Shown in pieces: positions 673-18,322 of a DNA stretch of 20,000 nucleotides. Origin of the DNA: an uncultured virus (IMG/VR IMGVR_UViG_3300032282_003852). Taxonomy: Duplodnaviria; Heunggongvirae; Uroviricota; Caudoviricetes. The first letter of the stretch is position 1. Every line of letters begins with the position of its first letter. The notes beneath the pieces are model-generated. The model was given only the letters and a program-made list of their open reading frames with translations. It was not told where the DNA came from and ran no database searches. The translations under genes were made by a program, and so were the position numbers. The DNA is taken from IMG/VR virus record IMGVR_UViG_3300032282_003852. One strand, written 5' to 3'.

Positions 673-3531
673 TTACCCGAAAGTAAACACGGCCTCTTCT
701 GCGGCGGAAAGGTCGGCAGCAAAAAATGCGTAGCCTACCTTAAAATGATTGGCATCTACTGACCCTGACTCCTTGTCCATTAGGCAAGTTTGAGGAAACT
801 TATAGATGCTGGAGTCCCAGATTGGTGGGTCAACGGGATCCAGAGTCTCAGACACGATGTCATTCACCACGTGCCCTGTGACAAATGAGCAATCCGCCGC
901 TCGGAAATACTCCCCCTTCCAGTCTCCGTACCCTCTCCCCATTGGCGCAGAAGTGTCAGCTCTACGCTCATGTAGGGCGTCATACTCTACAATATCTGCT
1001 TCTGAGAAGGTATCGTAAGGTAGGTCAAATGACGGAAGGAGAGCAGCATTCTCATAGTCCTCTACATTTACAAAGTATGGTAAAGCTGTAGAGTAGAGGT
1101 AAGGCTCTGAGTATATGATGTTGGAAGGGGGTAGCCCTTGCCTGAATAGAAAGACCTCCTCGTAAATCTCTGGTTTTGATTCCTGAGATGGGCATGACAT
1201 GTCTTCTGGATAGCTAGGGGATCCCCAGTAGCCAAAGTCTTGGCAAATCAGGTTTACCTTCTGCCAATTTACCCCATTTCTTTGGAATGACGGGGCTAGT
1301 CTAATGAAGTACCTCTCCCAGCTTAGACTTAGGGGACCTGAGTTTGCATCAGCAACCAAGGCGTTAGGGTAGTTGAGCCTTGTGTAGGCAGAGTTGTCAT
1401 CTGTGCAGTACATGGGGTAGTCCTTCATCACCCTGAGCAAGGTCTCACTGTCACTCACGTTGGGGGACATGTAATACTGAAGGCCACTAAATACTAACTC
1501 AGAAATGTCTCGGAAAAATGAAGTTGTTAAGGAGTCAGATATAGTAATTAGGGGGTAACTAACCATTCCGCTATAGTTTCTTGGAACGTAACTAAACTCA
1601 AATTTCCCTGTGGTAGGGTGTATCGTATAAGAAAACTGGAAGTCATTAGTTAGATGGTTTACCCCGTCTGTTAGCAAGGTACCGTCGCAATAGACCAGAA
1701 TGGTGCCAAACTCAATGACGGATGGAGGCGGCCCAGTTACATTCCCGCCATTGACGTTGACCCAGTCCCCCTTCAGCTCCCACTCAAACGTTATAGTGTT
1801 GTACTCCCACCTATTGTAGTAGAAAATGGAGGCCGTTCGTGTGGGCACGTTAGGGTTGCTATAATCCCAAACCATTTCTCCTTCCACAGGGTTATCATAA
1901 TCCAGAGAACTTTGAAATAGCCGTGTGTCCCCTATGTACTTAAGCTCAGACGGGGGGGAGAGATACCAACTTCCGTCATTTTCATACTTCATTAACAGGG
2001 TGTTATAGTTACCTGATACAGTGATGCTCAGGTTTCTAACTGTGTAACTCCCTTCCGATGGGCTTAAACCGTTTGAGTCGATAATGGATGTCTTTACGTT
2101 GGGGGGCAGAGCCTGGCTATCGGAAGCAAAATCTCCAACATTGTTGTAAATGAACTGTAGCGGAAACCACCCTGTAGCCCACCTCGGCCTGAACATTATA
2201 ACCTGACCAGGAGATGTTAAAGGGGTGGTAATCCCCAATACATCGTCCAAAGCATCTAAACCAGAACAGTCTGTAATCTGAACAATGTCCCCAACTGAGA
2301 AGTCATCTGTGTAGTCTCTAAACCCCGAAACATTGGGAAAGATATAATCTGGGAACAGACTTTGTTCCTCATTTGACGAGTAATCTACCTCCACCCAGGG
2401 CCCACAGTTGAAGGAGTCGTCCACATGTAGAGAGAACTTGCCTGTTTGAGAGTTCCACCACACTTGAGACTTACGGGTTATGGGGGGTGGCAAACTATTC
2501 ACCTGCGTCTGTTGTTGGTACACAGAGTTCAGGAGAATGTCAAAGTCTATGTCCCTTGTTACGGGCTGCAAATACAGAGACTTTCTCTCGTCAAACCCAT
2601 GTAAGGACAAAGAGTCAAAGGTGAAGTGAAAAGGTAGGAATCCCCCCTTATTCCCCCAAACCCCGGTAAACTGCTCTATTTTATTTTTGGTTACCCAGTC
2701 AGATGGGTCGGACCATGTAGCAATGGACACGACGAGGGAAGAACCCTCATAGTCTAGCTTAGCTGAAAGTTCTGTGTTCTTTTTGGAAGACTCGCAGGGA
2801 ACATCAATGTACCACGTTTCGGAAACAAAGTCGTAGGTAGGGGCAATAAATATGACCTTGTTAAGGTCATCATATATGATGAGTTTTACAGGTAGATTGA
2901 AGTAGTAACGTGAACCTGCGTACAGGGTATTGAAGACGTACGGAAGAGTTTTGCCAGTGTCGTATAGGGGGTACAAGGTTATCTTCTCACCCTCGATGCC
3001 ACACAAGAAGCTCCTATCTGCTGAAACTCCTGCATCCTTTCTTACGAAGGGTGAGGGGATGACCGAAGGGGCTATTACCCTAAGCTGCAAACCAGTCGAT
3101 ATATCAGATAGGAATTGGGTCGGAATAGAATCAAAAGTTATTACTAAAGTGTCACCATCCTTTGTTACTGAAGAGGGCGTGTACTCGTATATCCCTACGT
3201 GGAAGACTTGCCCCTCGGAAATGTTCGAGTCATATTTTATGATAACCTCGTTACTCCAGTTCCTAATCTCTAGTATTTCCGGGTAAATGAACCCGCTATA
3301 CACACCAAAAGACCCCGTTAAAAGCTGTCTCTTTTGATCTATGGAGGCGTTAAAAGAGTCCCAATAGTTATCCCCCCTCCACCCCAAAAGCTGGCCTATC
3401 CAGTTCATTTGGGCGGGAATCCTTATGTTGGCATCTATAATCTTACCTACCTGTGTAGAGTTAAAGAAACCTTCGGTATCTCCCCTAAGCTCGTAGTTAT
3501 TGACGTTAAAGTCTGGGGAATAAATAGCCAT
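673..3531 (-). CDS. Large virion structural protein (tail/baseplate associated)
   Basis: 952-aa ORF between baseplate genes. Aromatic/acidic beta-rich composition, tail-fibre-like WWNSQTGKFSL...WVEV motif and an internal duplicated module (FPDYIFPNVSGF..ITDCSGL / LQFIYNNVGDF..IIDSNGL). Confidence 0.6.
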   Translation of the reverse strand: MAIYSPDFNVNNYELRGDTEGFFNSTQVGKIIDANIRIPAQMNWIGQLLGWRGDNYWDSFNASIDQKRQLLTGSFGVYSGFIYPEILEIRNWSNEVIIKYDSNISEGQVFHVGIYEYTPSSVTKDGDTLVITFDSIPTQFLSDISTGLQLRVIAPSVIPSPFVRKDAGVSADRSFLCGIEGEKITLYPLYDTGKTLPYVFNTLYAGSRYYFNLPVKLIIYDDLNKVIFIAPTYDFVSETWYIDVPCESSKKNTELSAKLDYEGSSLVVSIATWSDPSDWVTKNKIEQFTGVWGNKGGFLPFHFTFDSLSLHGFDERKSLYLQPVTRDIDFDILLNSVYQQQTQVNSLPPPITRKSQVWWNSQTGKFSLHVDDSFNCGPWVEVDYSSNEEQSLFPDYIFPNVSGFRDYTDDFSVGDIVQITDCSGLDALDDVLGITTPLTSPGQVIMFRPRWATGWFPLQFIYNNVGDFASDSQALPPNVKTSIIDSNGLSPSEGSYTVRNLSITVSGNYNTLLMKYENDGSWYLSPPSELKYIGDTRLFQSSLDYDNPVEGEMVWDYSNPNVPTRTASIFYYNRWEYNTITFEWELKGDWVNVNGGNVTGPPPSVIEFGTILVYCDGTLLTDGVNHLTNDFQFSYTIHPTTGKFEFSYVPRNYSGMVSYPLITISDSLTTSFFRDISELVFSGLQYYMSPNVSDSETLLRVMKDYPMYCTDDNSAYTRLNYPNALVADANSGPLSLSWERYFIRLAPSFQRNGVNWQKVNLICQDFGYWGSPSYPEDMSCPSQESKPEIYEEVFLFRQGLPPSNIIYSEPYLYSTALPYFVNVEDYENAALLPSFDLPYDTFSEADIVEYDALHERRADTSAPMGRGYGDWKGEYFRAADCSFVTGHVVNDIVSETLDPVDPPIWDSSIYKFPQTCLMDKESGSVDANHFKVGYAFFAADLSAAEEAVFTFG

Positions 3532-3563
3532 TTACTAACAAATTCTTAAATGAACTTTACCCG

Positions 3564-4865
3564 TCAATACTCCTGGTAAGCCGGGTCGGGGCATTTATCA
3601 AAGTTTAGTATCACGTCGCTCTCAGCCAAACCGACATACTCACCGACCATTGCAGTTTGGGGATTCATCCACGTCTGCGGGTAATTAGAAACTTGACCAT
3701 ACAGGTAGATTAAGTTGTTATCCCAAGTCCTGGTCAACCAGTCGGCTATGGGCTCGTAGCTAGTATTTACTATTTCCCTTATGTCTTGAATGCCCTCTAC
3801 TATAAAGGCAGAGTTAACGTCCACATAAGCTAACTTACATAAGACAAGTGGAACCTCTTCCCCCAGACTGTTGGTGAACTTTGTAGGAATGGCATTGACC
3901 GGGTAAGCCACTAAGTCAAAGTTGGTATAGGCCGTTGCTGGTTTTTTCATCTGGGTCACGGTGCCAGTGACAAATACATTGCTTATGGATACCCTAGGGT
4001 CAGACCACTCTACTTTCCAACCCTTGCAAACAGGGGGCTCATCTAAAGTGAATTTATAGTATTGACCGCCGGAATCTTCCAAAACAGAGACTGTCTCCTC
4101 AAACGTCCATTCAGGGGTCTGACAAAAAGCCTCACCTTCATCGGGACAAGTCATGTAGGATAGGGTGGCTGTTCCCGTTAGGGTTGTGTTTGAGGGGCAC
4201 CTGAGGAGGATTTCTGAGAATGCGCACGGTAACGGCAGTTGCCAGCTAAGGGTGGCATCTTGACTGTAAGACGGGAATAACCCGTCATAGTTACTCCAAT
4301 ACCTATCACTCTGACCTAAAAAGGCATATTGCGGAGTGTATCTCCACCCTAATACGTTGTCAGTATTGCTACGAATGTCCATTGTAAACCCGCTCAAAGG
4401 CATCCCGGTAACGGAATACTGGGCCTGTATCGGGGAGTCGTCGTAATAAAGTTGATAGGCAAGAAGGTATTTAGCACTGCCCATACCCAGAAGTTCTAGG
4501 TCTATGACTACAGGTATCGTGGGCAGCGTGCCGTATTCCCAAACAATATTACCACCTTGTATGACCAGATACTTGTTATCTCCAGACGTTTGCACATACA
4601 TGGACCCAGACCCTGTTCGTGCCCCTCCGTAAGGAATGTAAGTGTAGGCTAGGTTGTTATCATAAGAAAAGTTTACTTTGTACCTTTCTGAGGCTGATGG
4701 CAACCTGTCATAAACCGGCCTTCCACCCACTCTCCACTCTGTCGGAATGGGTTCCAGCCTTTTGACCTCAGCGTACTGCCTAGATAGGAACTTCCCAAAC
4801 TTAGGGGCAGAGTTGGTTACAATAGTCTCCCTGCCACCGTTTATTGAACTCTGATTTTGACTCAT
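3564..4865 (-). CDS. Putative baseplate wedge/tail protein
   Basis: 433-aa ORF overlapping the baseplate-J stop (ATGA). Its position after J and the RPVYDRLP...IADWLT motifs recall wedge partners of J; the central region looks like a beta-sandwich. Confidence 0.55.
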   Translation of the reverse strand: MSQNQSSINGGRETIVTNSAPKFGKFLSRQYAEVKRLEPIPTEWRVGGRPVYDRLPSASERYKVNFSYDNNLAYTYIPYGGARTGSGSMYVQTSGDNKYLVIQGGNIVWEYGTLPTIPVVIDLELLGMGSAKYLLAYQLYYDDSPIQAQYSVTGMPLSGFTMDIRSNTDNVLGWRYTPQYAFLGQSDRYWSNYDGLFPSYSQDATLSWQLPLPCAFSEILLRCPSNTTLTGTATLSYMTCPDEGEAFCQTPEWTFEETVSVLEDSGGQYYKFTLDEPPVCKGWKVEWSDPRVSISNVFVTGTVTQMKKPATAYTNFDLVAYPVNAIPTKFTNSLGEEVPLVLCKLAYVDVNSAFIVEGIQDIREIVNTSYEPIADWLTRTWDNNLIYLYGQVSNYPQTWMNPQTAMVGEYVGLAESDVILNFDKCPDPAYQEY

Positions 4866-9032: not shown

Positions 9033-12000
9033 TCAGGAAAGAATGTCGGTGATCATTGAGCCAGAACCGATAAGACCGGTTGCACCAAGACCAACCAGGT
9101 TAACTACACGCTCGACGGTGATCTCAGCACGAACCACACGGCGCTCACGCACATAATACTCAGGACGCACGGAAGGAGTTCCAGTGAGTTGATCAAATGT
9201 GTTATCGTAAAAGTTCTTTATCTTTTACATCTTCCTATTTCTAGGAAGTTCAGACTATATCTTCTTCCCTAAATTCTTTTATAAACCTCTGAAGAGTTTT
9301 ACACCTGTACTTGTTCTTTTTAGTTCCTAGACCCAAGAGTTGGCCTAGTGCTATGTCCCCTGGTTTGCCGTTATCAATCCAGATAGCCCTTATGTCATCC
9401 TTTATGGATTCCAAGTCTTTTCTGGAGTTTGGGTGGTTGGCCCCTCTGAGCAGTTTTTCGGATGATAATCTCGATTGAGAAATCCTCCTCTTTCTGTCCT
9501 CTGATAAAGGGACTCCCTTTAAGGCTTGAGCAATCTTCTGGTTATGGGACTTGGATCTAACATAGTTGGATCTTAGGTAATCATAATCCCGGCTCTTACC
9601 TGAACTGCTCATTCTAAAGATGGCGTAGTATAAACCTTCATGTTCTGGGAACATTTTGTTTAGAAGCCGGTGCAGAATGTAGTGCTGTCTAAGGGTTGGG
9701 TAGCACAAGTTGTCCTTACTGGTTGGGTGTCCACCCATACACTTAGGGACAATGTGGTGTTCTTCAGTTTTATAGGTTCTTGGTTTGTTTGAAGGTATTA
9801 CGGAGATTAGATCCCAGTAAACCCTTTCGTATTTGTTTCTATAAAAGCATTTAAGGAGTGGGGCACTCGTGGACGAGTTATTGTTGTCGATACTCATCGT
9901 CTAGTCGTTGAACCTTTTTACTACTACCCCTCTATTATAGGAGGGAAGTTCGACGTAGTAAACTTGGCTGCTGATTACCTTGTGTTTCGTTTTGCGAAAC
10001 CGTCAGGCTTCCCAGCAATTCACCCCATTGACCTGCTGATCAGGCAGGTAATTTGACGTTACCGTCAAACCACGCATCTAACTCGTTGGAATGGAACGAT
10101 GTTATTAACATACGTGTATGCGAAAGCAGGAGTTGCGGCGTTAGCACCACCAGCAGGCATGATAGAATCAGAGGGACCGCTGGGGCTGTAGAACAGAAGG
10201 ATACCGTTGCTGGGGAACACCGGCTGGAGGGTACCATCGGCGGCCAGATAACGACCTTCGGCTACACGCAGACCACGCTCAAGACCGAAGTAGCGGGCAA
10301 GAACGTCGGTGTCGATAGAATCGGCACTGGTGTACTTGATACGCTCAAGGATCGCCTGGTTGGTCAGTAGTTGGTCGAACACTGCGGTTCCGAGAACAGC
10401 AGAGTTAGGACGGATACCGATTTGGTTAGCGACGGCACGCTTCATGGTGAGCACGTCCTCGATGGGGTTACCAGAGAGGGCGGACCAAGCAGCAGGACCG
10501 GCAGCAGTAGCGTAGGAATCCTTGAAAGCGGTCCAGGTCTCAAAGCCGAGACCGGTCTGTGAACCTAGGGTTGTATCCCAGGGCTCATATGGGTTGTAGG
10601 ATGCGGTGACGGTGACAGCTTGAGAAACGGTGTACTCATAGCTGTTCATTCAACTTGTTATCGCTAAGGCTTTTTATCCCTAGCCTCTCTATGTTTCCAC
10701 AGAGTTCAGACTATATCACATACCACAGTTACCAGTAGAAGTCAGGTACTGAACCGGGGTATTTGGGCGCTCGTGGGACTTTCTTCTGTTCTAGATTACT
10801 TGTCCTAGTCGTTGAACCTTCCTTCTATCCCTAGAAGGCTTGGCTGCTGATTGCCTTGCGTTTCGTTCCCGAAACCGTCAGGTTTCCCAGCAATTCACCC
10901 AATTTTCCATGTACTTAACATGGGGCCAATGTTTTTAGCCTCGACATCGCATTGCGGGTCTCAATAGCTCTGAGATCCACTTGTGCCGGACCTTCTCCGG
11001 CGTTCTCAATTCAATTATGTTACCACAAAGGCTCTTTATCCTTTGTATCTTCACATTTCTGTGAAGTTCAGACTATATCTTCACCCTCACTAGTGCCCCC
11101 AGACTTAGCTTTTGCTTTAGCTTCAGCTCTCATTTGGGTCATGTGGTTCCTGGCAGCTTCCCTATGGTCATGAGACCTTTTCTTGTCTGCCCAGTATCTA
11201 AGATTTGCTTCTCTTCTCTTTTGTTTCTCCTCTTCCGTCTATTTCCTGCCTCGGTTAGCCTCATGTGCCCGTCTGGAAGTCTCCTTAGGGAGACTTTTCC
11301 CTTTCTTGGACTCACTCAACTTCCTCCTCATGGACTCAGACTTTTTTCTACCTTTTTCGGCAGCCCCTGGGGACTTCCTAAAGGACTCTTGTTGAAGAGT
11401 AGTAACTAATATGGATAACCTAGGTTTATAACTAATAGACCCACCTTTTCCACTACCTTTACCAAAGATTGCTCTCCTAACATAACACCAGTGTTTAGGA
11501 TTGTTAGTTCCTTTGGCAAGCAGAACGTGGAAGATAAAGTGTTCTCTATGGGTTAACTTTACCAGGTTCTCGGGGTTATCATCTCCTCCATCACAAACTG
11601 GTATGATGTGGTGAATGTGAAACCCCCTCTCCTTTCTTAGTCTTCTATGTTTTCTAGAGTTGCAAAACTTATAGTACCACTTAAGCCACTTGTTAGGGTG
11701 TTGGGTGCTCGTGGACGAGTTATTGTTGTCGATACTCATCGTCTAGTCGTTGAACCTTCTTACCACAGTCACATGTATTATAGCAAGTGACTCGACTTGG
11801 TAAACTTGGCTGCTGATTGCCTTGTGTTTCAGGGAAGTCAGACCCGAAACCGTCAGGTTTCCCAGCAATTCACCCAATTTTTCCGTCAGCCTTTCGACTG
11901 AGGGAGGCTATTGATCTTAACCTCTTCCGGCAGTTCCCAAGCCACTACTTCTTGCTCAAGAGCATAAGGCTCTGAGTCGTAACGGCTCTGAACGAACGGG

Positions 12001-13422
12001 ATGTTGGTCCCGTATGCACGGCGGTAATCGTTAATAGCAAACTGCTCCTTCAATTATGTTATCGCAAAGGCTCTTTATCCTTTGCATCTTTGTATTTCTA
12101 CAAAGTTCAGACTATATCACCATCTTGTAAACAAGATGTGGGGCTCTCGTGTCAGCTTCATCACTGGTCTAGTGGTATGCTGTTAGTCGTTGAACCTTCC
12201 TTCTATCCCTAGAAGGCTTGGCTGCTGATTGCCTGTTTTGTGTAAGCAAAACTAAGGTTTTCCAGCAATTCACCCCATTTTTCATAACCCCTTACGAGGT
12301 TAAGCGGCATATGGAATACCGAAACGCAGGATGCGTCCTGCACGGGTCGGAGTGTCCACAACAGGTGCGATAAAGTTCGCAATGTTGGTGGACGGTAGCA
12401 TAAAACCTTGGGCAAGTGTTGTGAGGATAGGCAATTTGTTATCTTAAGGGCTCTTTATCCCTTAAATCTCTTTGTTCATTTCCAAAGAGTTCAGACTATA
12501 TCATCATCCTGGATTATAGCCTCTTATCCACCCGTCACCGGGAGAAACTTCACTTTTCCTCCTTTCTATAGAACCATCAGAGTTTCTTCTGGACCAGTAG
12601 ACTTTACCTTTGTTTTTGGATCCAGCCTTAGACATAGCAGGACTAATTTCCTTGCTTCTGCCTCTTGTCCATCCTTCCCCTGGAGACTCTAGACTTCTTT
12701 TGTTTTTTCCGTCTTTAGTCCACCACGGGAGCTTGCCTGTAGATTTACCGCCTTTTTTAGCTTGAGACTGCCCTTCGGAAGTATTCAAGAGGTAATTACT
12801 AACGGCAATACTATTGGCTTCTCTGTGTTCTTTCGATATCTTCTTCCCTTTGTGGATCTTGCTGATCTTATCCCTAGTTTCCTGGCTAGTGTCTCCTTTT
12901 CTTCTCGTAGAAAGGGCTTCTCTACATAGAAGTCTAAGTTCTTCGTACTCTTCAGGGGTCATTTCTTCCCCATTCAAGTGACTCATAAACCACAAGGCTG
13001 ACCTTAGTTTGGAATACTCTGGAAAAGTTTCAACTAAGAACTGATGGGCTATTAGATGTTCAGATGGTGTTAAGTAGATAAGGTTTTCTTCTTCCTCTCC
13101 CCCTTCCATACACCTAGGGATAATGTGATGCCTTTCTGTATAAAAGGGCGGTTTCACTCTCCTTTCGGGTAGGAGGCTTTTCAGGAAGAAATAGTAATCC
13201 GAGGAGCTGGGCACTCGTGTAGGAATTATTCCGGGGTTGGTCATCCTTTAGTCGTTGAACCTTTTTACTCTACCCCTATTATAGCAACAGGGGACCCAAA
13301 GTAAACTCGGCTGCTAATTGGCTTCTCAGCGTTTCAGCAATTCACCCAGTTTTCGATCTTCATTTCTGAAGAAAGGGACCATTTTAATCCACACCTGCGT
13401 AGGTTTGTTGTAGATTCATCAT
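9033..13422 (-). CDS. Major capsid protein; spliced gene of 6 exons: 13422-13387, 12431-12318, 12050-11920, 11011-10937, 10650-10112, 9193-9033 (1056 nt, 351 aa)
   Basis: Joined exons read MMNLQQTYAGVD/PILTTLAQGFMLPSTNIANFIAPVVDTPTRAGRILRFG/KEQFAINDYRRAYGTNIPFVQSRYDSEPYALEQEVVAWELPEEV/IENAGEGPAQVDLRAIETRNAMSRL/MNSYEY...GIRPNSAVLG...ILERIKY...TPAFAYTY/QLTGTPSVRPEYYVRERRVVRAEITVERVVNLVGLGATGLIGSGSMITDILS* with no frameshift or stop. The motifs VDPILT.LAQG, G.I..FGKE.F, G.RPN..VLG and P.F.YTYQL match a known phage major-capsid family (recognised from memory). Confidence 0.9.
9250..9897 (-). CDS. Intron-encoded HNH homing endonuclease with NUMOD3-like DNA-binding motif
   Basis: EEHHIVPKCMGG...DNL...TLRQHYILHRLL HNH motif; KGVPLSEDRKRRISQS NUMOD3-like; inside intron 5. 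Confidence 0.9.
   Translation of the reverse strand: MSIDNNNSSTSAPLLKCFYRNKYERVYWDLISVIPSNKPRTYKTEEHHIVPKCMGGHPTSKDNLCYPTLRQHYILHRLLNKMFPEHEGLYYAIFRMSSSGKSRDYDYLRSNYVRSKSHNQKIAQALKGVPLSEDRKRRISQSRLSSEKLLRGANHPNSRKDLESIKDDIRAIWIDNGKPGDIALGQLLGLGTKKNKYRCKTLQRFIKEFREEDIV
9934..9962 (-). promoter_or_regulatory. Sigma70-like promoter inside intron 5, upstream of the HNH ORF
   Basis: TTTACT-17 nt-TATAAT. Confidence 0.7.
10651..10936 (-). mobile_element. Group I intron 4 of the capsid gene (286 nt), ORF-less
   Basis: Core elements present; P1 GGCU|AA with UUGGCC; P10 CAUU with 3'-exon AAUG; terminal G at 10651. Confidence 0.93.
11068..11739 (-). pseudogene. Intron-encoded HNH/NUMOD3 homing endonuclease with an in-frame TAG at 11241-11239
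   Basis: HIHHIIPVCDGGDDNPENLVKLTHREHFIFH HNH motif. The frame continues past TAG for 56 codons (RGRK*TEEEKQKRREA...GEDIV*) and ends at the same EDIV-TGA as the intron-5 enzyme. Confidence 0.8.
11777..11804 (-). promoter_or_regulatory. Sigma70-like (extended -10) promoter inside intron 3
   Basis: TTTACC-16 nt-TATAAT, with TGC directly before TATAAT. Confidence 0.7.
12051..12317 (-). mobile_element. Group I intron 2 of the capsid gene (267 nt), ORF-less
   Basis: Same core elements; P1 CGGU|AU pairs with AUGCCG (U.G at the splice site); ends ...ACATAATTG; removal restores RFG/KEQF. Confidence 0.93.
12504..13244 (-). CDS. Intron-encoded HNH homing endonuclease with NUMOD3-like motifs and two C-terminal W..G repeats
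   Basis: ERHHIIPRCMEGGEEEENLIYLTPSEHLIAH; KGDTSQETRDKISKIHKGKKISKEH; repeats GKLPWWT...SPGEGWTRG / GKVYWS...SPGDGWIRG; inside intron 1. Confidence 0.9.
   Translation of the reverse strand: MTNPGIIPTRVPSSSDYYFFLKSLLPERRVKPPFYTERHHIIPRCMEGGEEEENLIYLTPSEHLIAHQFLVETFPEYSKLRSALWFMSHLNGEEMTPEEYEELRLLCREALSTRRKGDTSQETRDKISKIHKGKKISKEHREANSIAVSNYLLNTSEGQSQAKKGGKSTGKLPWWTKDGKNKRSLESPGEGWTRGRSKEISPAMSKAGSKNKGKVYWSRRNSDGSIERRKSEVSPGDGWIRGYNPG
13278..13305 (-). promoter_or_regulatory. Sigma70-like (extended -10) promoter inside intron 1
   Basis: TTTACT-16 nt-TATAAT, with TGC directly before TATAAT. Confidence 0.7.
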
Positions 13423-13524: not shown

Positions 13525-14118
13525 TCACTTCGCCTTGCGCAGTTCATCCAAACAAGCAGTAATTCCATCCATCTTTCTCTCCCATTCCTCCTGTGCCTTC
13601 TTTTGATTCTGTTCATGCAGCACCATGGAGTCCACAATCACCTGAGGGTTCTGAGTTCCGTAGAAATCATCCACAACGACCGGATAGCACTTATCACAAG
13701 ATGCAGGTTCTACCTCCTCTCTCCCCAGGTACTCGCTTGTTGAAAAGCTATAAGTCTTTCCCTCATACTCCTTTTCCTTAGTTTTGTAAACGTCCCGGAA
13801 CCATTTCACTGAGAACGATCCATCGTCATAGACATGGTATCCGATAAAGTGGAGCAGGGGGCCGAAGACATCCGTATCCTGAGGAATGATTTCCCTAAAC
13901 ATGTGGTGTTTCCAGTGCCTCGTTTCACCAGACTTAGTCTCCCACTCCAGGTACTTGGAAACGAAAGCTAGAACACTGTCTAGGTGATACTCCCTAAAGT
14001 ATGGGTTAGGGCCGTTCTTCCACTCGTTTAACCTATCTTTAAAACACCTGTGATTATCTTCAAGTTCCTTCACTATGTCGTGATGAACGCTGTCAATCAC
14101 TCCGAATAGATCATCCAT
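13525..14118 (-). CDS. Hypothetical protein
   Basis: 197-aa ORF overlapping the end of the upstream MTase gene, with GAGGTG SD; no recognised motif. Confidence 0.75.
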   Translation of the reverse strand: MDDLFGVIDSVHHDIVKELEDNHRCFKDRLNEWKNGPNPYFREYHLDSVLAFVSKYLEWETKSGETRHWKHHMFREIIPQDTDVFGPLLHFIGYHVYDDGSFSVKWFRDVYKTKEKEYEGKTYSFSTSEYLGREEVEPASCDKCYPVVVDDFYGTQNPQVIVDSMVLHEQNQKKAQEEWERKMDGITACLDELRKAK

Positions 14119-14926
14119 TCCCGCTCACCTCTCTCTCATGGTTCATAATCCTTGCCTTAGCTAGCTCAAAATACTCCTTATTTTTCTCAATTCCTATAAA
14201 GTTCCTGCCGGTATTGATGCAGGCGACACCTGTAGAACCAGAACCCATGCAGTTATCCAAAACCACCTCACCTTCAGAAGTGTACGTCTTGATTAGATAC
14301 TCAAGTAGGGGGACAGGTTTCTGGGTTGGGAATATGCGTTCCTTCCCAAATGGCACGTCGTAGCTCAGGATGGAGATGGGGTAGTTAGTTCCTGCAACTT
14401 CGTACTCACCCGCCTTCAAGGCATTGTATCTGAACGTCCCTTCTTTCCTAATGTCGTTCTTCCTAAACCGCTTCTTCTTCTCCCAGCATACCCCTTGAGG
14501 GTTGTATCTAAGGGGGGTAGATGCCCCGGTATTCACCCCAGCATGGCTGAATACAACAATGTCCTCATGAACTTTGAGGGGTTGAAACTTAACCGCAACA
14601 TGATTAGCAGCCTTGTTCTTCTCCCAAACCCAAGTGTATTTATACATCGCCAGGTTAGATGCAACCAAGACAGATGTGAAGGGTTGGGCACCGAATAGCA
14701 CAATTGCCCCATCTGGCTTGATGATCCGGCGATAATGATTCCATAGCGACCCCAGGTCGATAACCGACTCATTACGCATCTGGTTCCCATTCTTGAGGAC
14801 CGTATCAAAATCTGCGTAGGTTGTTCCGTAAGGTAAATCGCAGAGGACCATGTCAACTGAACCATCCGCTATCCCTCCCATCTTGTCGAGACAATCTCCT
14901 TGAAGCAAGTCTATCCCTTCGCTCAT
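14111..14926 (-). CDS. DNA amino-methyltransferase (N6A/N4C, beta class), orphan
   Basis: Motif IV CDLPY, FPTQKP, then motif I VVLDNCMGSGSTG and FIGIE, i.e. beta order; no adjacent restriction gene is evident. Confidence 0.93.
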   Translation of the reverse strand: MSEGIDLLQGDCLDKMGGIADGSVDMVLCDLPYGTTYADFDTVLKNGNQMRNESVIDLGSLWNHYRRIIKPDGAIVLFGAQPFTSVLVASNLAMYKYTWVWEKNKAANHVAVKFQPLKVHEDIVVFSHAGVNTGASTPLRYNPQGVCWEKKKRFRKNDIRKEGTFRYNALKAGEYEVAGTNYPISILSYDVPFGKERIFPTQKPVPLLEYLIKTYTSEGEVVLDNCMGSGSTGVACINTGRNFIGIEKNKEYFELAKARIMNHEREVSGNG

Positions 14927-15593: not shown

Positions 15594-16475
15594 CTAGCAA
15601 GCTGGAGATGGAGGGCGGCTCACGTACAAGGTGTCTAAGTGAAGCCAGGTTTTTCTGCCTTTATTGATAATGACGGCAGACTTCTCCCCTGTATGAGGAT
15701 TTACCTCGATTCCCGATACCGTTCCCTTCGTCAGGAGACAGGATGGGCTCCTTCTCCCCTTTGTGCCACTCGTTCTGTCAATCTGAAAAACTTCCTCATC
15801 AACTATTGAATCACAGGGCAGTTTGTCAGCTTTAACATAGGAAAACCGCCACTCTTGCAAGGAACACTCCCAGCATGACGGCTGCATGTTAGACGGTTTC
15901 CCGTCACCACCTTTGGACTTTGGCACAATCGTGCTTCGGGTCATCAAGTGATGGTCTTCCGTATAAATGTTTATGTGGTCTTTCCCCCCCTGTCTGGAGC
16001 GAATAAGCCTTGTGCCAACCCTACCGCAATAGGAACATCCACACCCCTTCTCTGCAAAAAGTCTTAGATTCTTCTTGTAAGGGAAATCCCCAATAGACGA
16101 CACGGGAAGTTCCTCAACTACAGTTCCCACCTTCCGGCTCGGGAGCAAAACCTTTGTCCCATCTATGTTACACCCCTTGGCATTATTGCACTCCCAGCAC
16201 ATTGGCTGGAGGTTCCCGATGTCGTCCGATCCTCCCATAGACTTAGGGAAGATGTGGTCTACTGTCAAAGGGTGAAGATCCTGAGTATAGACGTCTATGT
16301 GGGGCTTTCCATGAACGTCCTTACCTTGAATCAACCTTGTCCCCTTTCTGCCGCAAGCCACACACTTGCACCCTTTCCCCAAGAACACCTTGATACGAGG
16401 GTACTGGGAGAACTGCCTAAGGTGACTGAAGGGGAACTCTTTTACAAAGGTGTAGTTAAAGTGAGGGAGTTTCAT
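15594..16475 (-). CDS. Free-standing HNH endonuclease with two tandem Zn-finger HNH domains (second degenerate)
   Basis: Domain 1 CVACG...LTVDHIFPKSMGGSDDIGNLQPMCWECNNAKG; domain 2 CSYCG...MTRSTIVPKSKGGDGKPSNMQPSCWECSLQE. Confidence 0.88.
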   Translation of the reverse strand: MKLPHFNYTFVKEFPFSHLRQFSQYPRIKVFLGKGCKCVACGRKGTRLIQGKDVHGKPHIDVYTQDLHPLTVDHIFPKSMGGSDDIGNLQPMCWECNNAKGCNIDGTKVLLPSRKVGTVVEELPVSSIGDFPYKKNLRLFAEKGCGCSYCGRVGTRLIRSRQGGKDHINIYTEDHHLMTRSTIVPKSKGGDGKPSNMQPSCWECSLQEWRFSYVKADKLPCDSIVDEEVFQIDRTSGTKGRRSPSCLLTKGTVSGIEVNPHTGEKSAVIINKGRKTWLHLDTLYVSRPPSPAC

Positions 16476-16544: not shown

Positions 16545-16734
16545 CCCCCCCATCCCCGTAAACCCCGTCCAATGTTTTTGCTATTGCCTCGGCCTTCCCT
16601 GGTGAACGCTCCACAGACAGGCGTAGCCAGACAGGCCCCCACACCTGTCCAATGACACTGTTGCCATGGGCTCGATAGCGGAACCACCGTGCTGGTAGGG
16701 CCTTGTACAGGGGGAGGTGGGGCAGGACAATCAC
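16516..16734 (-). CDS. Hypothetical protein
   Basis: 72 aa, GTGA overlap with the MTase stop; fills the gap in a co-oriented cluster. Confidence 0.5.
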   Translation of the reverse strand: MIVLPHLPLYKALPARWFRYRAHGNSVIGQVWGPVWLRLSVERSPGKAEAIAKTLDGVYGDGGVDLDRPGKV

Positions 16735-17759
16735 TTCGGTAGCCCTTGCGAGTGTGAGGAGTTTGCTAACCGGGTGGGGTCTGGATTGAGTCCTCTCAAC
16801 CTATCCCCAAAAAAGTCTTCTTCCATCCCTAACCTAGACATAATCCCGTCAAAATTACCATCTTCTGACTTAACTTTCGCCCCCAGGGTAGGGGTCTTCC
16901 TCTTAAGGTTTATGTCGAATGTAAACCCCTCAGGACTTAGGTTGTTTGACCTACAGTAGCTCCTTAAGCATTTAAGGTTGGCAAAACTATTGAGTTCATT
17001 AGGCAGACCACTAACCCTTCTCTCCGATACTTCACAATAACTTTTGACCATTTCACTACCTAGATAGTCCCTGCCGTTCTCTTTAGCTACAACAGCCACT
17101 GTGCCTGAGCCAATGTAAGGATCGTAGACCAAGTCCCCTGTATCTGTAGTTGATAAGATAATCCTCGCTATTAAGTCTTCTGGGAACTGACAAGGATGAA
17201 TCGTTTGCTCCTCATGGTTATGTTTAACATTGGAGAAAGCCCAAACATCCCCAGGGTTCTTGCCAAGTGGGTTACATGACAGCTTCCCTTTATTAGACCC
17301 TCTGTGAGACGTCTTCCCCTGGTACTTCTGGGGAACTCTTACGCCATCAAGATTGAACTTATAGGAGCTTGACTTTGAGTACCACATGATGGTTTCATGC
17401 CTCCCTGAGAACCTTCTTTTAGAGTGGAGGCCGTGCTGCCTAACCCAGACAACTCTGTTGACCGGGTTGAACCCCGCCTCGCAAAACCAAGGATAGGTAG
17501 CTATGTCAAGGGGGACATGAAAATGTCCATTAACGTAAATACCAACTTGCCAGAATACTGATCCGGAAGGCTTCAATACCCTGTACATCTCCTTGAACAA
17601 CTTCCCTTGATTGGACAAGTATTCATCTAGACCCACCTGTTTTTCGTATTCCTTACCTATGTTATAAGGAGGAGAACTAACTATTAAGTCTACAGAATCG
17701 TTTGGTAGATGGGATAAAGTGGTAAAACAATCTTCATTTCTTATAGAGTTCAGTTCCAT
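16731..17759 (-). CDS. DNA N4-cytosine methyltransferase (beta class), M.BglII/M.BstYI-like, orphan
   Basis: Motif IV SSPPY; GKNPGDVWAF.NVKHNHEEQTIHPCQFPED; motif I VYDPYIGSGT. The resemblance to M.BglII is from recall and not verified. Confidence 0.88.
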   Translation of the reverse strand: MELNSIRNEDCFTTLSHLPNDSVDLIVSSPPYNIGKEYEKQVGLDEYLSNQGKLFKEMYRVLKPSGSVFWQVGIYVNGHFHVPLDIATYPWFCEAGFNPVNRVVWVRQHGLHSKRRFSGRHETIMWYSKSSSYKFNLDGVRVPQKYQGKTSHRGSNKGKLSCNPLGKNPGDVWAFSNVKHNHEEQTIHPCQFPEDLIARIILSTTDTGDLVYDPYIGSGTVAVVAKENGRDYLGSEMVKSYCEVSERRVSGLPNELNSFANLKCLRSYCRSNNLSPEGFTFDINLKRKTPTLGAKVKSEDGNFDGIMSRLGMEEDFFGDRLRGLNPDPTRLANSSHSQGLPK

Positions 17760-18248: not shown

Positions 18249-18322
18249 TGGCGGACCGGGGGATCGAACCCCTATTCCTCCAGCTTATGAGGCTGGCGTG
18301 ACTACCGTTACACTCGTCCGCA
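18249..18322 (-). tRNA. tRNA with CAU anticodon (Met-like), atypical; CCA not encoded
   Basis: TGCGGAC GA GTGT AACGGTAG TCAC G CCAGC CTCATAA GCTGG AGGAAT AGGGG TTCGATC CCCCG GTCCGCC A folds as a cloverleaf with a perfect anticodon arm and GGTTCGA T-loop. Confidence 0.85.

Follow-up and report, generated by a model that had tools for sequence, protein, structure and literature searches.

How can a phage make its major capsid protein from a gene of which three quarters is intron, and why would such introns have gathered there? The question is raised by a locus in a 20,000-nucleotide (nt) stretch of DNA from an uncultured virus of the Caudoviricetes (IMG/VR record IMGVR_UViG_3300032282_003852), a stretch that we call the window. 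A first-pass annotation, made from the letters of the window, had read positions 9033-13422 (4390 nt) as a major capsid gene in which five group I introns separate six exons; the gene lies on the minus strand. Cutting at the junction words that it gave, each of which is present where it had been placed, reproduces its arithmetic: the introns sum to 3334 nt, or 76% of the locus, and the exons to 1056 nt, which when joined form an open frame of 351 codons with a single terminal stop. The interpretation that we consider very probable is that this capsid gene was invaded by five mobile group I introns of one family, selfish passengers that are tolerated since they splice.

The presence of five group I introns was borne out by a search of the whole window with Rfam cmscan. 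Four matches reached the gathering score of RF00028, which is 50 bits, all of them on the minus strand: 12327-12088 (96.4 bits), 10946-10687 (82.8 bits), 11929-11049 (72.7 bits) and 10104-9231 (58.7 bits), with E-values from 4e-24 to 8e-13. The only other Rfam family found in the window was tRNA. In the case of intron 1, a permissive search returned two halves of the same model, both below the threshold, at 13402-13199 (29.1 bits, E 3.5e-5) and 12654-12472 (20.2 bits, E 0.016); the match is split because the insert, an open reading frame (ORF) of 741 nt, is too long for the model. Intron 1 nevertheless has the same core and tail as the other four. The three longer core motifs noted in the first-pass annotation were found by regular expression in all five introns, and nhmmer profiles built from the five 5' cores and the five 3' tails had exactly five plus five matches in the window. 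The ribozyme parts are 59-70% identical pairwise, from which the five introns appear to be members of one family and not recent copies of each other. All five also carry a hairpin-forming insert of ~30-36 nt between the 5' strand of P7 and the 3' strand of P3. Introns of subgroup IA, such as those of T4 td and nrdB, SPO1 and Twort, have extra helices, P7.1 and P7.2, between these two strands. By homology, then, five group I introns in this locus can be regarded as confirmed, far beyond what chance would give.

The splice boundaries follow from several features of the introns and of their relatives. In each of the five introns the last exon base is a U opposite G in P1, which comprises 4-5 exon pairs and 2 intron pairs and uses a guide sequence distinct to that intron, and each intron ends in G, as part of a terminal ...TTG; both features had been claimed at the outset and hold without exception. 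The RF00028 matches end ~37 nt before the 3' splice sites, and the additional tail is itself a conserved element, consisting of a P9 stem and a further 3' hairpin that lie outside the Rfam model. Across 20 related introns, 96.8% of the cells in this element are paired, as against 26-58% with slid partners, and 13 of its 14 pairs show compensatory changes on both sides. The five 24-mers that span the predicted junctions are all contiguous in intron-less alleles of related phages, with 1-4 mismatches at best. Finally, a splice reconstruction by dynamic programming, whose only inputs were the hits to core and tail, the requirement for a U before and a G at the end of the intron, and an intron-less reference, returned for the window exactly the ten boundaries of the first-pass annotation. 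The same procedure left L008 and L004 unsolved among the five sources of a first run, and in a second run, on 24 loci, 14 were left either unsolved or without an intact frame (L007, L012, L033, L045, L048, L055, L056, L058, L059, L061, L064, L065, L066 and L071); for the unsolved loci the insertion sites are only rough, being taken from tblastn gaps (e.g., near residues 25/26).

The product of the joined exons had been called capsid-like, and the family searches agree. Exon 5 alone scores 37.7 bits against Pfam PF03864, Phage_cap_E (cut-off 22.9), and also matches the major head protein family phrog_1005, while two intron-less alleles score 30.3 and 33.7 bits against the same Pfam profile. The closest phage in GenBank is Synechococcus phage S-CBWM1 (NC_048106, genus Aokuangvirus), in which the gene is annotated as major head protein. 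By tblastn its 341-residue capsid protein is placed on the window in six pieces, in collinear order, one falling on each of the six exons. Residues 1-351 of the spliced product are 67.5% identical, end to end, to residues 1-341 of this protein, and the collinearity with an intron-less homologue that had been proposed as a check is thereby found. The other proposed check was for the HK97 fold. The intron-less IMG/VR allele L009 matched PDB entry 3bjq in a sequence search (E 4e-28), and an AlphaFold model of a second intron-less allele, L021, made with 123 diverse relatives, had a pLDDT of 88.6 and a pTM of 0.87; the modelled sequence is that of L021, ~89% identical to the product of the window, and not the window's own spliced sequence. 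In Foldseek the L021 model retrieved 3bjq at the top (E 4e-23; TM 0.70/0.80), followed by the capsids of HFTV1, YSD1, P23-45, lambda and HK97. On the strength of these sequence matches and of this model, the gene is a major capsid gene of the lambda gpE type, with a predicted HK97 fold.

The spliced frame is under coding constraint. Comparing the window to L009, 154 of the 204 nucleotide differences are in the third position of a codon; silent differences affect 136 codons, as against 34 with a residue change. Reading on from each exon into the following intron, a stop is met within 0-15 codons, so the capsid protein would need splicing. It could be asked whether the locus is instead a capsid gene that is dead or dying, or an artefact of assembly in which variants were joined, with the head being built from another gene. 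The contig of the window is probably metagenomic, and the search for a second capsid gene covered the window, where all other tblastn hits of the S-CBWM1 capsid protein had E > 1, and the genomes of relatives. The intact and constrained frame argues against such a reading, and so do independent records. G001, the nearest virus record, has the same 918-nt gap at the place of intron 5, with flanking exons that are 100% identical; the introns after nt 36 and 895 of the coding sequence (CDS) recur in the locus L025; and two independent contigs, L014 and L017, have architectures identical to each other. Moreover, exon 5 has one match only in each of the relatives G001-G005, and in the complete genome G002 (279,339 bp, terminal repeats, CheckV 100%), as in G005 (277 kb, CheckV 98%), that single match is the split gene. 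We consider a dead or artefactual locus extremely unlikely.

If the gene is an authentic capsid gene, the next question is how ordinary its state is among its relatives. Scanning IMG/VR with exon 5 gave 193 confirmed relatives; among the best 80 of the 193, which were kept, 67 loci had a complete gene. The gene is uninterrupted in 39 of the 67 and carries 1-13 introns in the other 28. Counted as intron cores within the gene span, 44 loci have none, four have one, three have two, one has four, eight have five, two have six, one each has seven, nine and ten, and two have 13. In five of the 44 loci without a core, a 3' tail hit lies immediately ahead of codon 4; for four of these the reconstruction puts an intron of 890 nt after CDS nt 9, and the fifth is the unsolved L033. 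In the 16 interrupted loci examined with Rfam, the group I matches that passed the threshold numbered 67, every one on the strand of the capsid gene. The most heavily interrupted alleles are L014 (L014:2102-7882, in record G002) and its twin L017, in which the removal of 13 introns restores an intact 1056-nt frame with 97.1% DNA identity to the intron-less L021, from exons of 9, 27, 5, 45, 64, 10, 32, 81, 8, 37, 38, 539, 32 and 129 nt; L024 has nine introns. That introns seem to be missing from exon 5 of the relatives is not meaningful, exon 5 having been the query with which relatives were found and ranked. Within whole genomes the introns are concentrated in this gene: 14 of the 17 group I matches in G002 lie in the capsid locus, the other three being in a primase-like gene, and 7 of the 8 in G005. 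Within this lineage, in which the capsid gene is a hot spot for introns, the window holds a middling place.

This variation bears on the suggestion, made in the first-pass annotation, that five splicing steps could act as a gate or timer for head assembly. Such a regulatory gate on the timing or amount of capsid production would fit with an unspliced RNA that makes no capsid protein, given the early stops, and with nuclease ORFs that overlap the ribozyme core, as described below, where translation and folding could interact. But the number of introns ranges from 0 to 13 among close relatives, most alleles have none, and S-CBWM1, the nearest isolate, has an uninterrupted gene; a required timer should not be so dispensable, and no conserved regulatory feature was found. 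The variable intron number, together with a 13-intron allele whose spliced exons are 97.1% identical in DNA to an intron-less one, is better explained by selfish elements than by a built-in timer. A gate thus seems very unlikely, and the suggestion is left without support.

The distribution of insertion sites bears on the mobility of the introns. In the twelve solved loci and the window there are at least 15 such sites, after CDS nt 9, 36, 41, 86, 93, 150, 160, 192, 273, 281, 303, 318, 356, 895 and 927, and all five sites of the window (36, 150, 281, 356 and 895) are occupied also in L014 and L024. The sites lie in better-conserved DNA (0.906 vs 0.871 for random placement), a value reached by 0.3% of 5000 draws. 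For four of the five window introns the closest match is an intron that occupies the same site in a different phage, and for intron 1 this nearest relative is the intron in L025. On a tree of 46 introns the site labels are clustered, with 22 changes against a mean of 35.4 when shuffled and none of 200 shuffles as low, although near-copies among the introns inflate this clustering. Site 36 is held in two ways: the window and L025 have a 955-nt intron with a nuclease gene, and L014 and L024 have a 276-nt intron without an ORF, from another branch of the tree.

The means of such movement may be encoded in the introns themselves. The ORFs of introns 1, 3 and 5 (246, 166 and 215 residues) all match the homing endonuclease family phrog_655, 3/3, at E 1e-26 to 1e-35. 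Only the intron 3 ORF passes the Pfam cut-off for HNH, and for the putative nuclease of intron 1 phmmer found no match in the PDB at E up to 1; all three have in common the motif HH..P.C.GG...NL...H, at a pairwise identity of 27-33%. Each ORF lies wholly within its intron, between the two strands of P7. The three ATG codons stand 5 nt after the 5' strand of P7, inside the extra hairpin, and the ORFs span P3' and P8 and run up to or into the 3' strand of P7, such that the coding sequence overlaps the ribozyme core. The ORF of intron 1 occupies intron nt 143-883, and the stop codon of the intron 5 ORF is inside the motif of the P7 3' strand. Introns 2 and 4 are without an ORF. In the case of intron 3, the frame at 11080-11739 has an in-frame TAG after codon 166, followed by 53 further open codons. 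Apart from decay, read-through would be an alternative for this stop. The nuclease ORFs of introns 3 and 5 have identical first 11 codons.

With three predicted nucleases in one locus, it can be argued that the introns are adaptive, i.e. that the HNH nucleases cut rival intron-less alleles and thereby spread the linked capsid region or damage the rival phage. This alternative overlaps with the selfish interpretation and differs from it only in the beneficiary. It would account for three diverged nuclease genes in one essential gene, for the coexistence of intron-less and intron-laden alleles with exons up to 97% identical, and for the concentration of the group I matches of G002 in the capsid locus; in addition, an intron endonuclease of phage PhiPA3 is reported to interfere with a co-infecting phage (PMC11620839). 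Set against this, 39 of the 67 complete loci are free of introns, nuclease genes are absent from two of the five introns in the window, and one of the nuclease ORFs contains a stop in frame. We judge adaptive introns to be unlikely, and continue with the selfish interpretation.

On that interpretation, transcription through all introns would give a pre-mRNA of ~4.4 kb, in which each intron would fold as a ribozyme, its guide pairing with the last 4-5 bases of the exon and the exon U lying opposite G. Excision by two guanosine-dependent transesterifications would then leave the 1056-nt message for the 351-residue capsid protein. The HNH enzymes of introns 1, 3 and 5 may cut or nick the intron-less alleles of co-infecting relatives, with repair copying the intron in, and introns 2 and 4 could persist by splicing alone or move passively with their neighbours. 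The exons of 5, 8, 9 and 10 nt in L014 are too short to form a full P1 alone, which suggests an order of splicing. A more far-reaching version can be envisioned in which one intron family has invaded the whole population of this ~280-kb lineage, chiefly in its capsid gene, the load is not neutral, the nucleases serve as weapons against co-infecting intron-less alleles, and adjacent introns splice in a set order, because a 5-nt exon would supply no full P1 until its upstream neighbour has been removed. We offer this as a tentative proposal, possible but rather doubtful.

Several points weigh against the selfish interpretation, or against parts of it. Intron 1 is below the Rfam threshold as a single match, and the splicing of all five introns is a prediction from ribozyme homology. 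The nuclease ORF of intron 3 may be decaying. The scope of the search for a second capsid gene, given above, belongs here as well, as does the presumed cyanobacterial host, which is taken from the nearest isolate only. On the intron tree, sites 9, 36, 281 and 356 each need 2-3 changes, i.e. different lineages occupy the same site, which implies that simple site-faithful homing is not the whole story; these differences between lineages at one site suggest that sites were invaded more than once or had their intron replaced. Some benefit to the phage is also conceivable.

How unusual, then, is the arrangement? The first-pass annotation considered that phage introns lie mostly in other genes, and held five of them in a capsid gene to be exceptional. 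The former is out of date, as introns in capsid genes have been published for LittleE, Tuc2009 and crAss-like phages; as to the latter, the count is indeed high, but it is not a new kind of arrangement, and relatives of this phage carry up to 13. Mycobacteriophage LittleE, of Cluster J, has one intron in its capsid gene; RT-PCR and N-terminal sequencing demonstrated that this intron is spliced (Pope et al. 2013, PMC3706429), and an intron in the capsid gene of the lactococcal phage Tuc2009 is cited there. As in the window, the LittleE intron carries an endonuclease gene, lies in an HK97-type capsid gene after an exon U, ends in G, and is absent from some relatives. The difference is that LittleE has one intron with proven splicing, while the window has five with predicted splicing. 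Among crAss-like phages, the capsid gene in cMAG OLRF01000054, from the Zeta group, is in five fragments, with four insertions of which three have intron-type domains, and group I introns occur in capsid genes of the Delta group (Yutin et al. 2021, PMC7886860). These too are capsid genes split by group I-type insertions with endonuclease genes, and they hampered annotation in the same manner; the window differs in having five introns, each with a recognisable ribozyme, in belonging to another lineage and capsid family, and in having intron-less alleles that pin the junctions.

A likeness is also found outside of phages. The major capsid gene of Faustovirus E12 is interrupted by 12 introns, which are of two kinds and include five group I introns; its junctions are supported by RNA-seq (Cherif Louazani et al. 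2018, PMC6247863). It resembles the window in its many exons, in five group I introns recognised by Rfam, some with homing endonuclease ORFs, and in exons that are richer in G+C than the introns (54% vs 43% in the window), but it belongs to a giant virus of amoebae with a double-jelly-roll capsid and GIY-YIG nucleases. S-CBWM1, in spite of its collinear capsid protein and the same downstream gene order, has an uninterrupted capsid gene of 1026 nt in a genome of 139 kb, as against ~280 kb for the complete relatives of the window, and its reported intron lies in psbA (PMC8557907). In the Jug phages, whose genomes measure 360-402 kb, the average is 18.5 group I introns per genome, and 37 of 76 have support for their splicing (PMC12880540). 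Two further reports, an endonuclease annotation in cyanophage PA-SR01 (PMC10286775) and a speculated polymerase intron in a Lactobacillus plantarum phage (PMC6669764), have no bearing on capsid-gene introns.

Two older systems offer further parallels. Staphylococcus phage Twort is said to have three group I introns in orf142, reportedly described by Landthaler and Shub in 1999, with exon skipping and with self-splicing shown experimentally. That case shares with the window several related group I introns in one late gene, with short exons between them, and differs in having three introns and in a title that does not name the gene as capsid. The cox1 gene of fungal mitochondria is a conserved, essential gene with many group I introns and homing endonucleases at many sites, varying between strains. 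Its nucleases are mostly of the LAGLIDADG and GIY-YIG types, in an organelle gene, whereas the window has a 1-kb phage gene with HNH nucleases.

In a literature search that covered journals other than subscription journals, we found no account of this lineage and, beyond the cases above, none of a phage whose capsid gene holds at least five recognised group I introns. As a kind, the elements are ordinary, being group I introns and HNH homing endonucleases; it is their density that is extreme, and 0-13 introns at 15 or more sites is more than for any phage gene that we found described. Each particle takes hundreds of copies of its capsid protein, so that five ribozymes, and thirteen in relatives, must all work efficiently on one transcript; the locus thereby puts multi-intron self-splicing in a bacterial cell to a demanding test set by nature. 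The lineage also provides a comparative series of intron-less and intron-bearing alleles, with and without a nuclease at the same site, suited to studying the gain, loss and replacement of introns and homing endonucleases and their possible role in competition between phages. A practical consequence had been foreseen, namely that automated annotation would miss such a capsid gene. Exon-sized fragments of this family are indeed present in a public library of predicted proteins, starting or ending at the intron sites (e.g., residues 120-298, 1-94 and 299-351; P0002, P0006, P0011, P0027, P0102, P0141 and others). Because gene callers report such fragments, surveys and annotations based on the capsid would under-count or misfile these phages.

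Coordinates of the exons, introns and intron ORFs of the split capsid gene, with the evidence for each (aa, amino acids; P1 U.G, exon U opposite G in P1)
Feature	Positions	Strand	Evidence
Capsid exon 1 (36 nt; ATG at 13422; aa 1-12)	13387..13422	-	tblastn, S-CBWM1 aa 1-12 at 13422-13387; splice reconstruction
Group I intron 1 (955 nt), after CDS nt 36	12432..13386	-	Two RF00028 half matches; nhmmer core and tail; P1 U.G; terminal G
Intron 1 ORF (246 aa), putative HNH-type homing endonuclease	12504..13244	-	phrog_655, E 7.8e-35; phrog_12434 HNH; weak NUMOD3 match
Exon 2 (114 nt; aa 13-50)	12318..12431	-	S-CBWM1 aa 13-50 at 12431-12318, 86.8% identity
Group I intron 2 (267 nt, without ORF), after CDS nt 150	12051..12317	-	RF00028, 96.4 bits, E 4e-24; P1 U.G; terminal G
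Exon 3 (131 nt)	11920..12050	-	S-CBWM1 aa 51-98 at 12050-11907; boundaries from splice reconstruction
Group I intron 3 (908 nt), after CDS nt 281	11012..11919	-	RF00028, 72.7 bits, E 4.9e-17; P1 U.G; terminal G
Intron 3 ORF (166 aa), putative HNH homing endonuclease, possibly truncated	11239..11739	-	Pfam HNH, 23.1 bits (cut-off 21.4); phrog_655, E 2.9e-26
Exon 4 (75 nt)	10937..11011	-	S-CBWM1 aa 95-121 at 11010-10930; boundaries from splice reconstruction
Group I intron 4 (286 nt, without ORF), after CDS nt 356	10651..10936	-	RF00028, 82.8 bits, E 4.7e-20; P1 U.G; terminal G
Exon 5 (539 nt), largest capsid piece	10112..10650	-	PF03864 Phage_cap_E, E 1.6e-9; phrog_1005, E 1.5e-22; S-CBWM1 aa 122-289, E 2.6e-64
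Group I intron 5 (918 nt), after CDS nt 895	9194..10111	-	RF00028, 58.7 bits, E 7.8e-13; P1 U.G; terminal G; 918-nt gap in G001
Intron 5 ORF (215 aa), putative HNH-type homing endonuclease	9250..9897	-	phrog_655, E 1.1e-32; HNH motif common to all three ORFs
Exon 6 (161 nt including stop codon)	9033..9193	-	S-CBWM1 aa 290-341 at 9191-9036, 76.9% identity

The genes around the locus place the window near S-CBWM1 in organisation. A megablast search of the locus against GenBank phages gave no match. Downstream of the capsid gene the order is as in S-CBWM1, with a 147-residue tube-like protein (69% identical), a 159-residue protein (52%) and baseplate J (51%). The G+C content is 54.2% in the exons, 42.9% in the introns and 46-48% in the neighbouring genes.

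A few observations concern other genes of the window and of its relatives. The primase-like gene of G002 (L084:909-3856, or G002:C1:19408-22355, minus strand) is split by group I introns, with three Rfam matches, and positions 11-273 of phrog_25243 are matched by one ORF and positions 342-585 by the next. In the window, two complete N6/N4 DNA methyltransferase genes lie on the minus strand at 14111-14926 and 16731-17759; each matches the full Pfam profile, and they are two genes and not one that has been split. Between them, on the same strand, is a free-standing HNH endonuclease gene at 15594-16475. A tRNA-Met gene (anticodon CAT) at 18249-18322 on the minus strand was found by both Rfam and ARAGORN. 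Downstream of baseplate J, at 673-4865 on the minus strand, are ORFs of 952 and 433 residues with no match in Pfam or PHROG, the shorter of which has relatives in L025 and L014 at ~50% identity.

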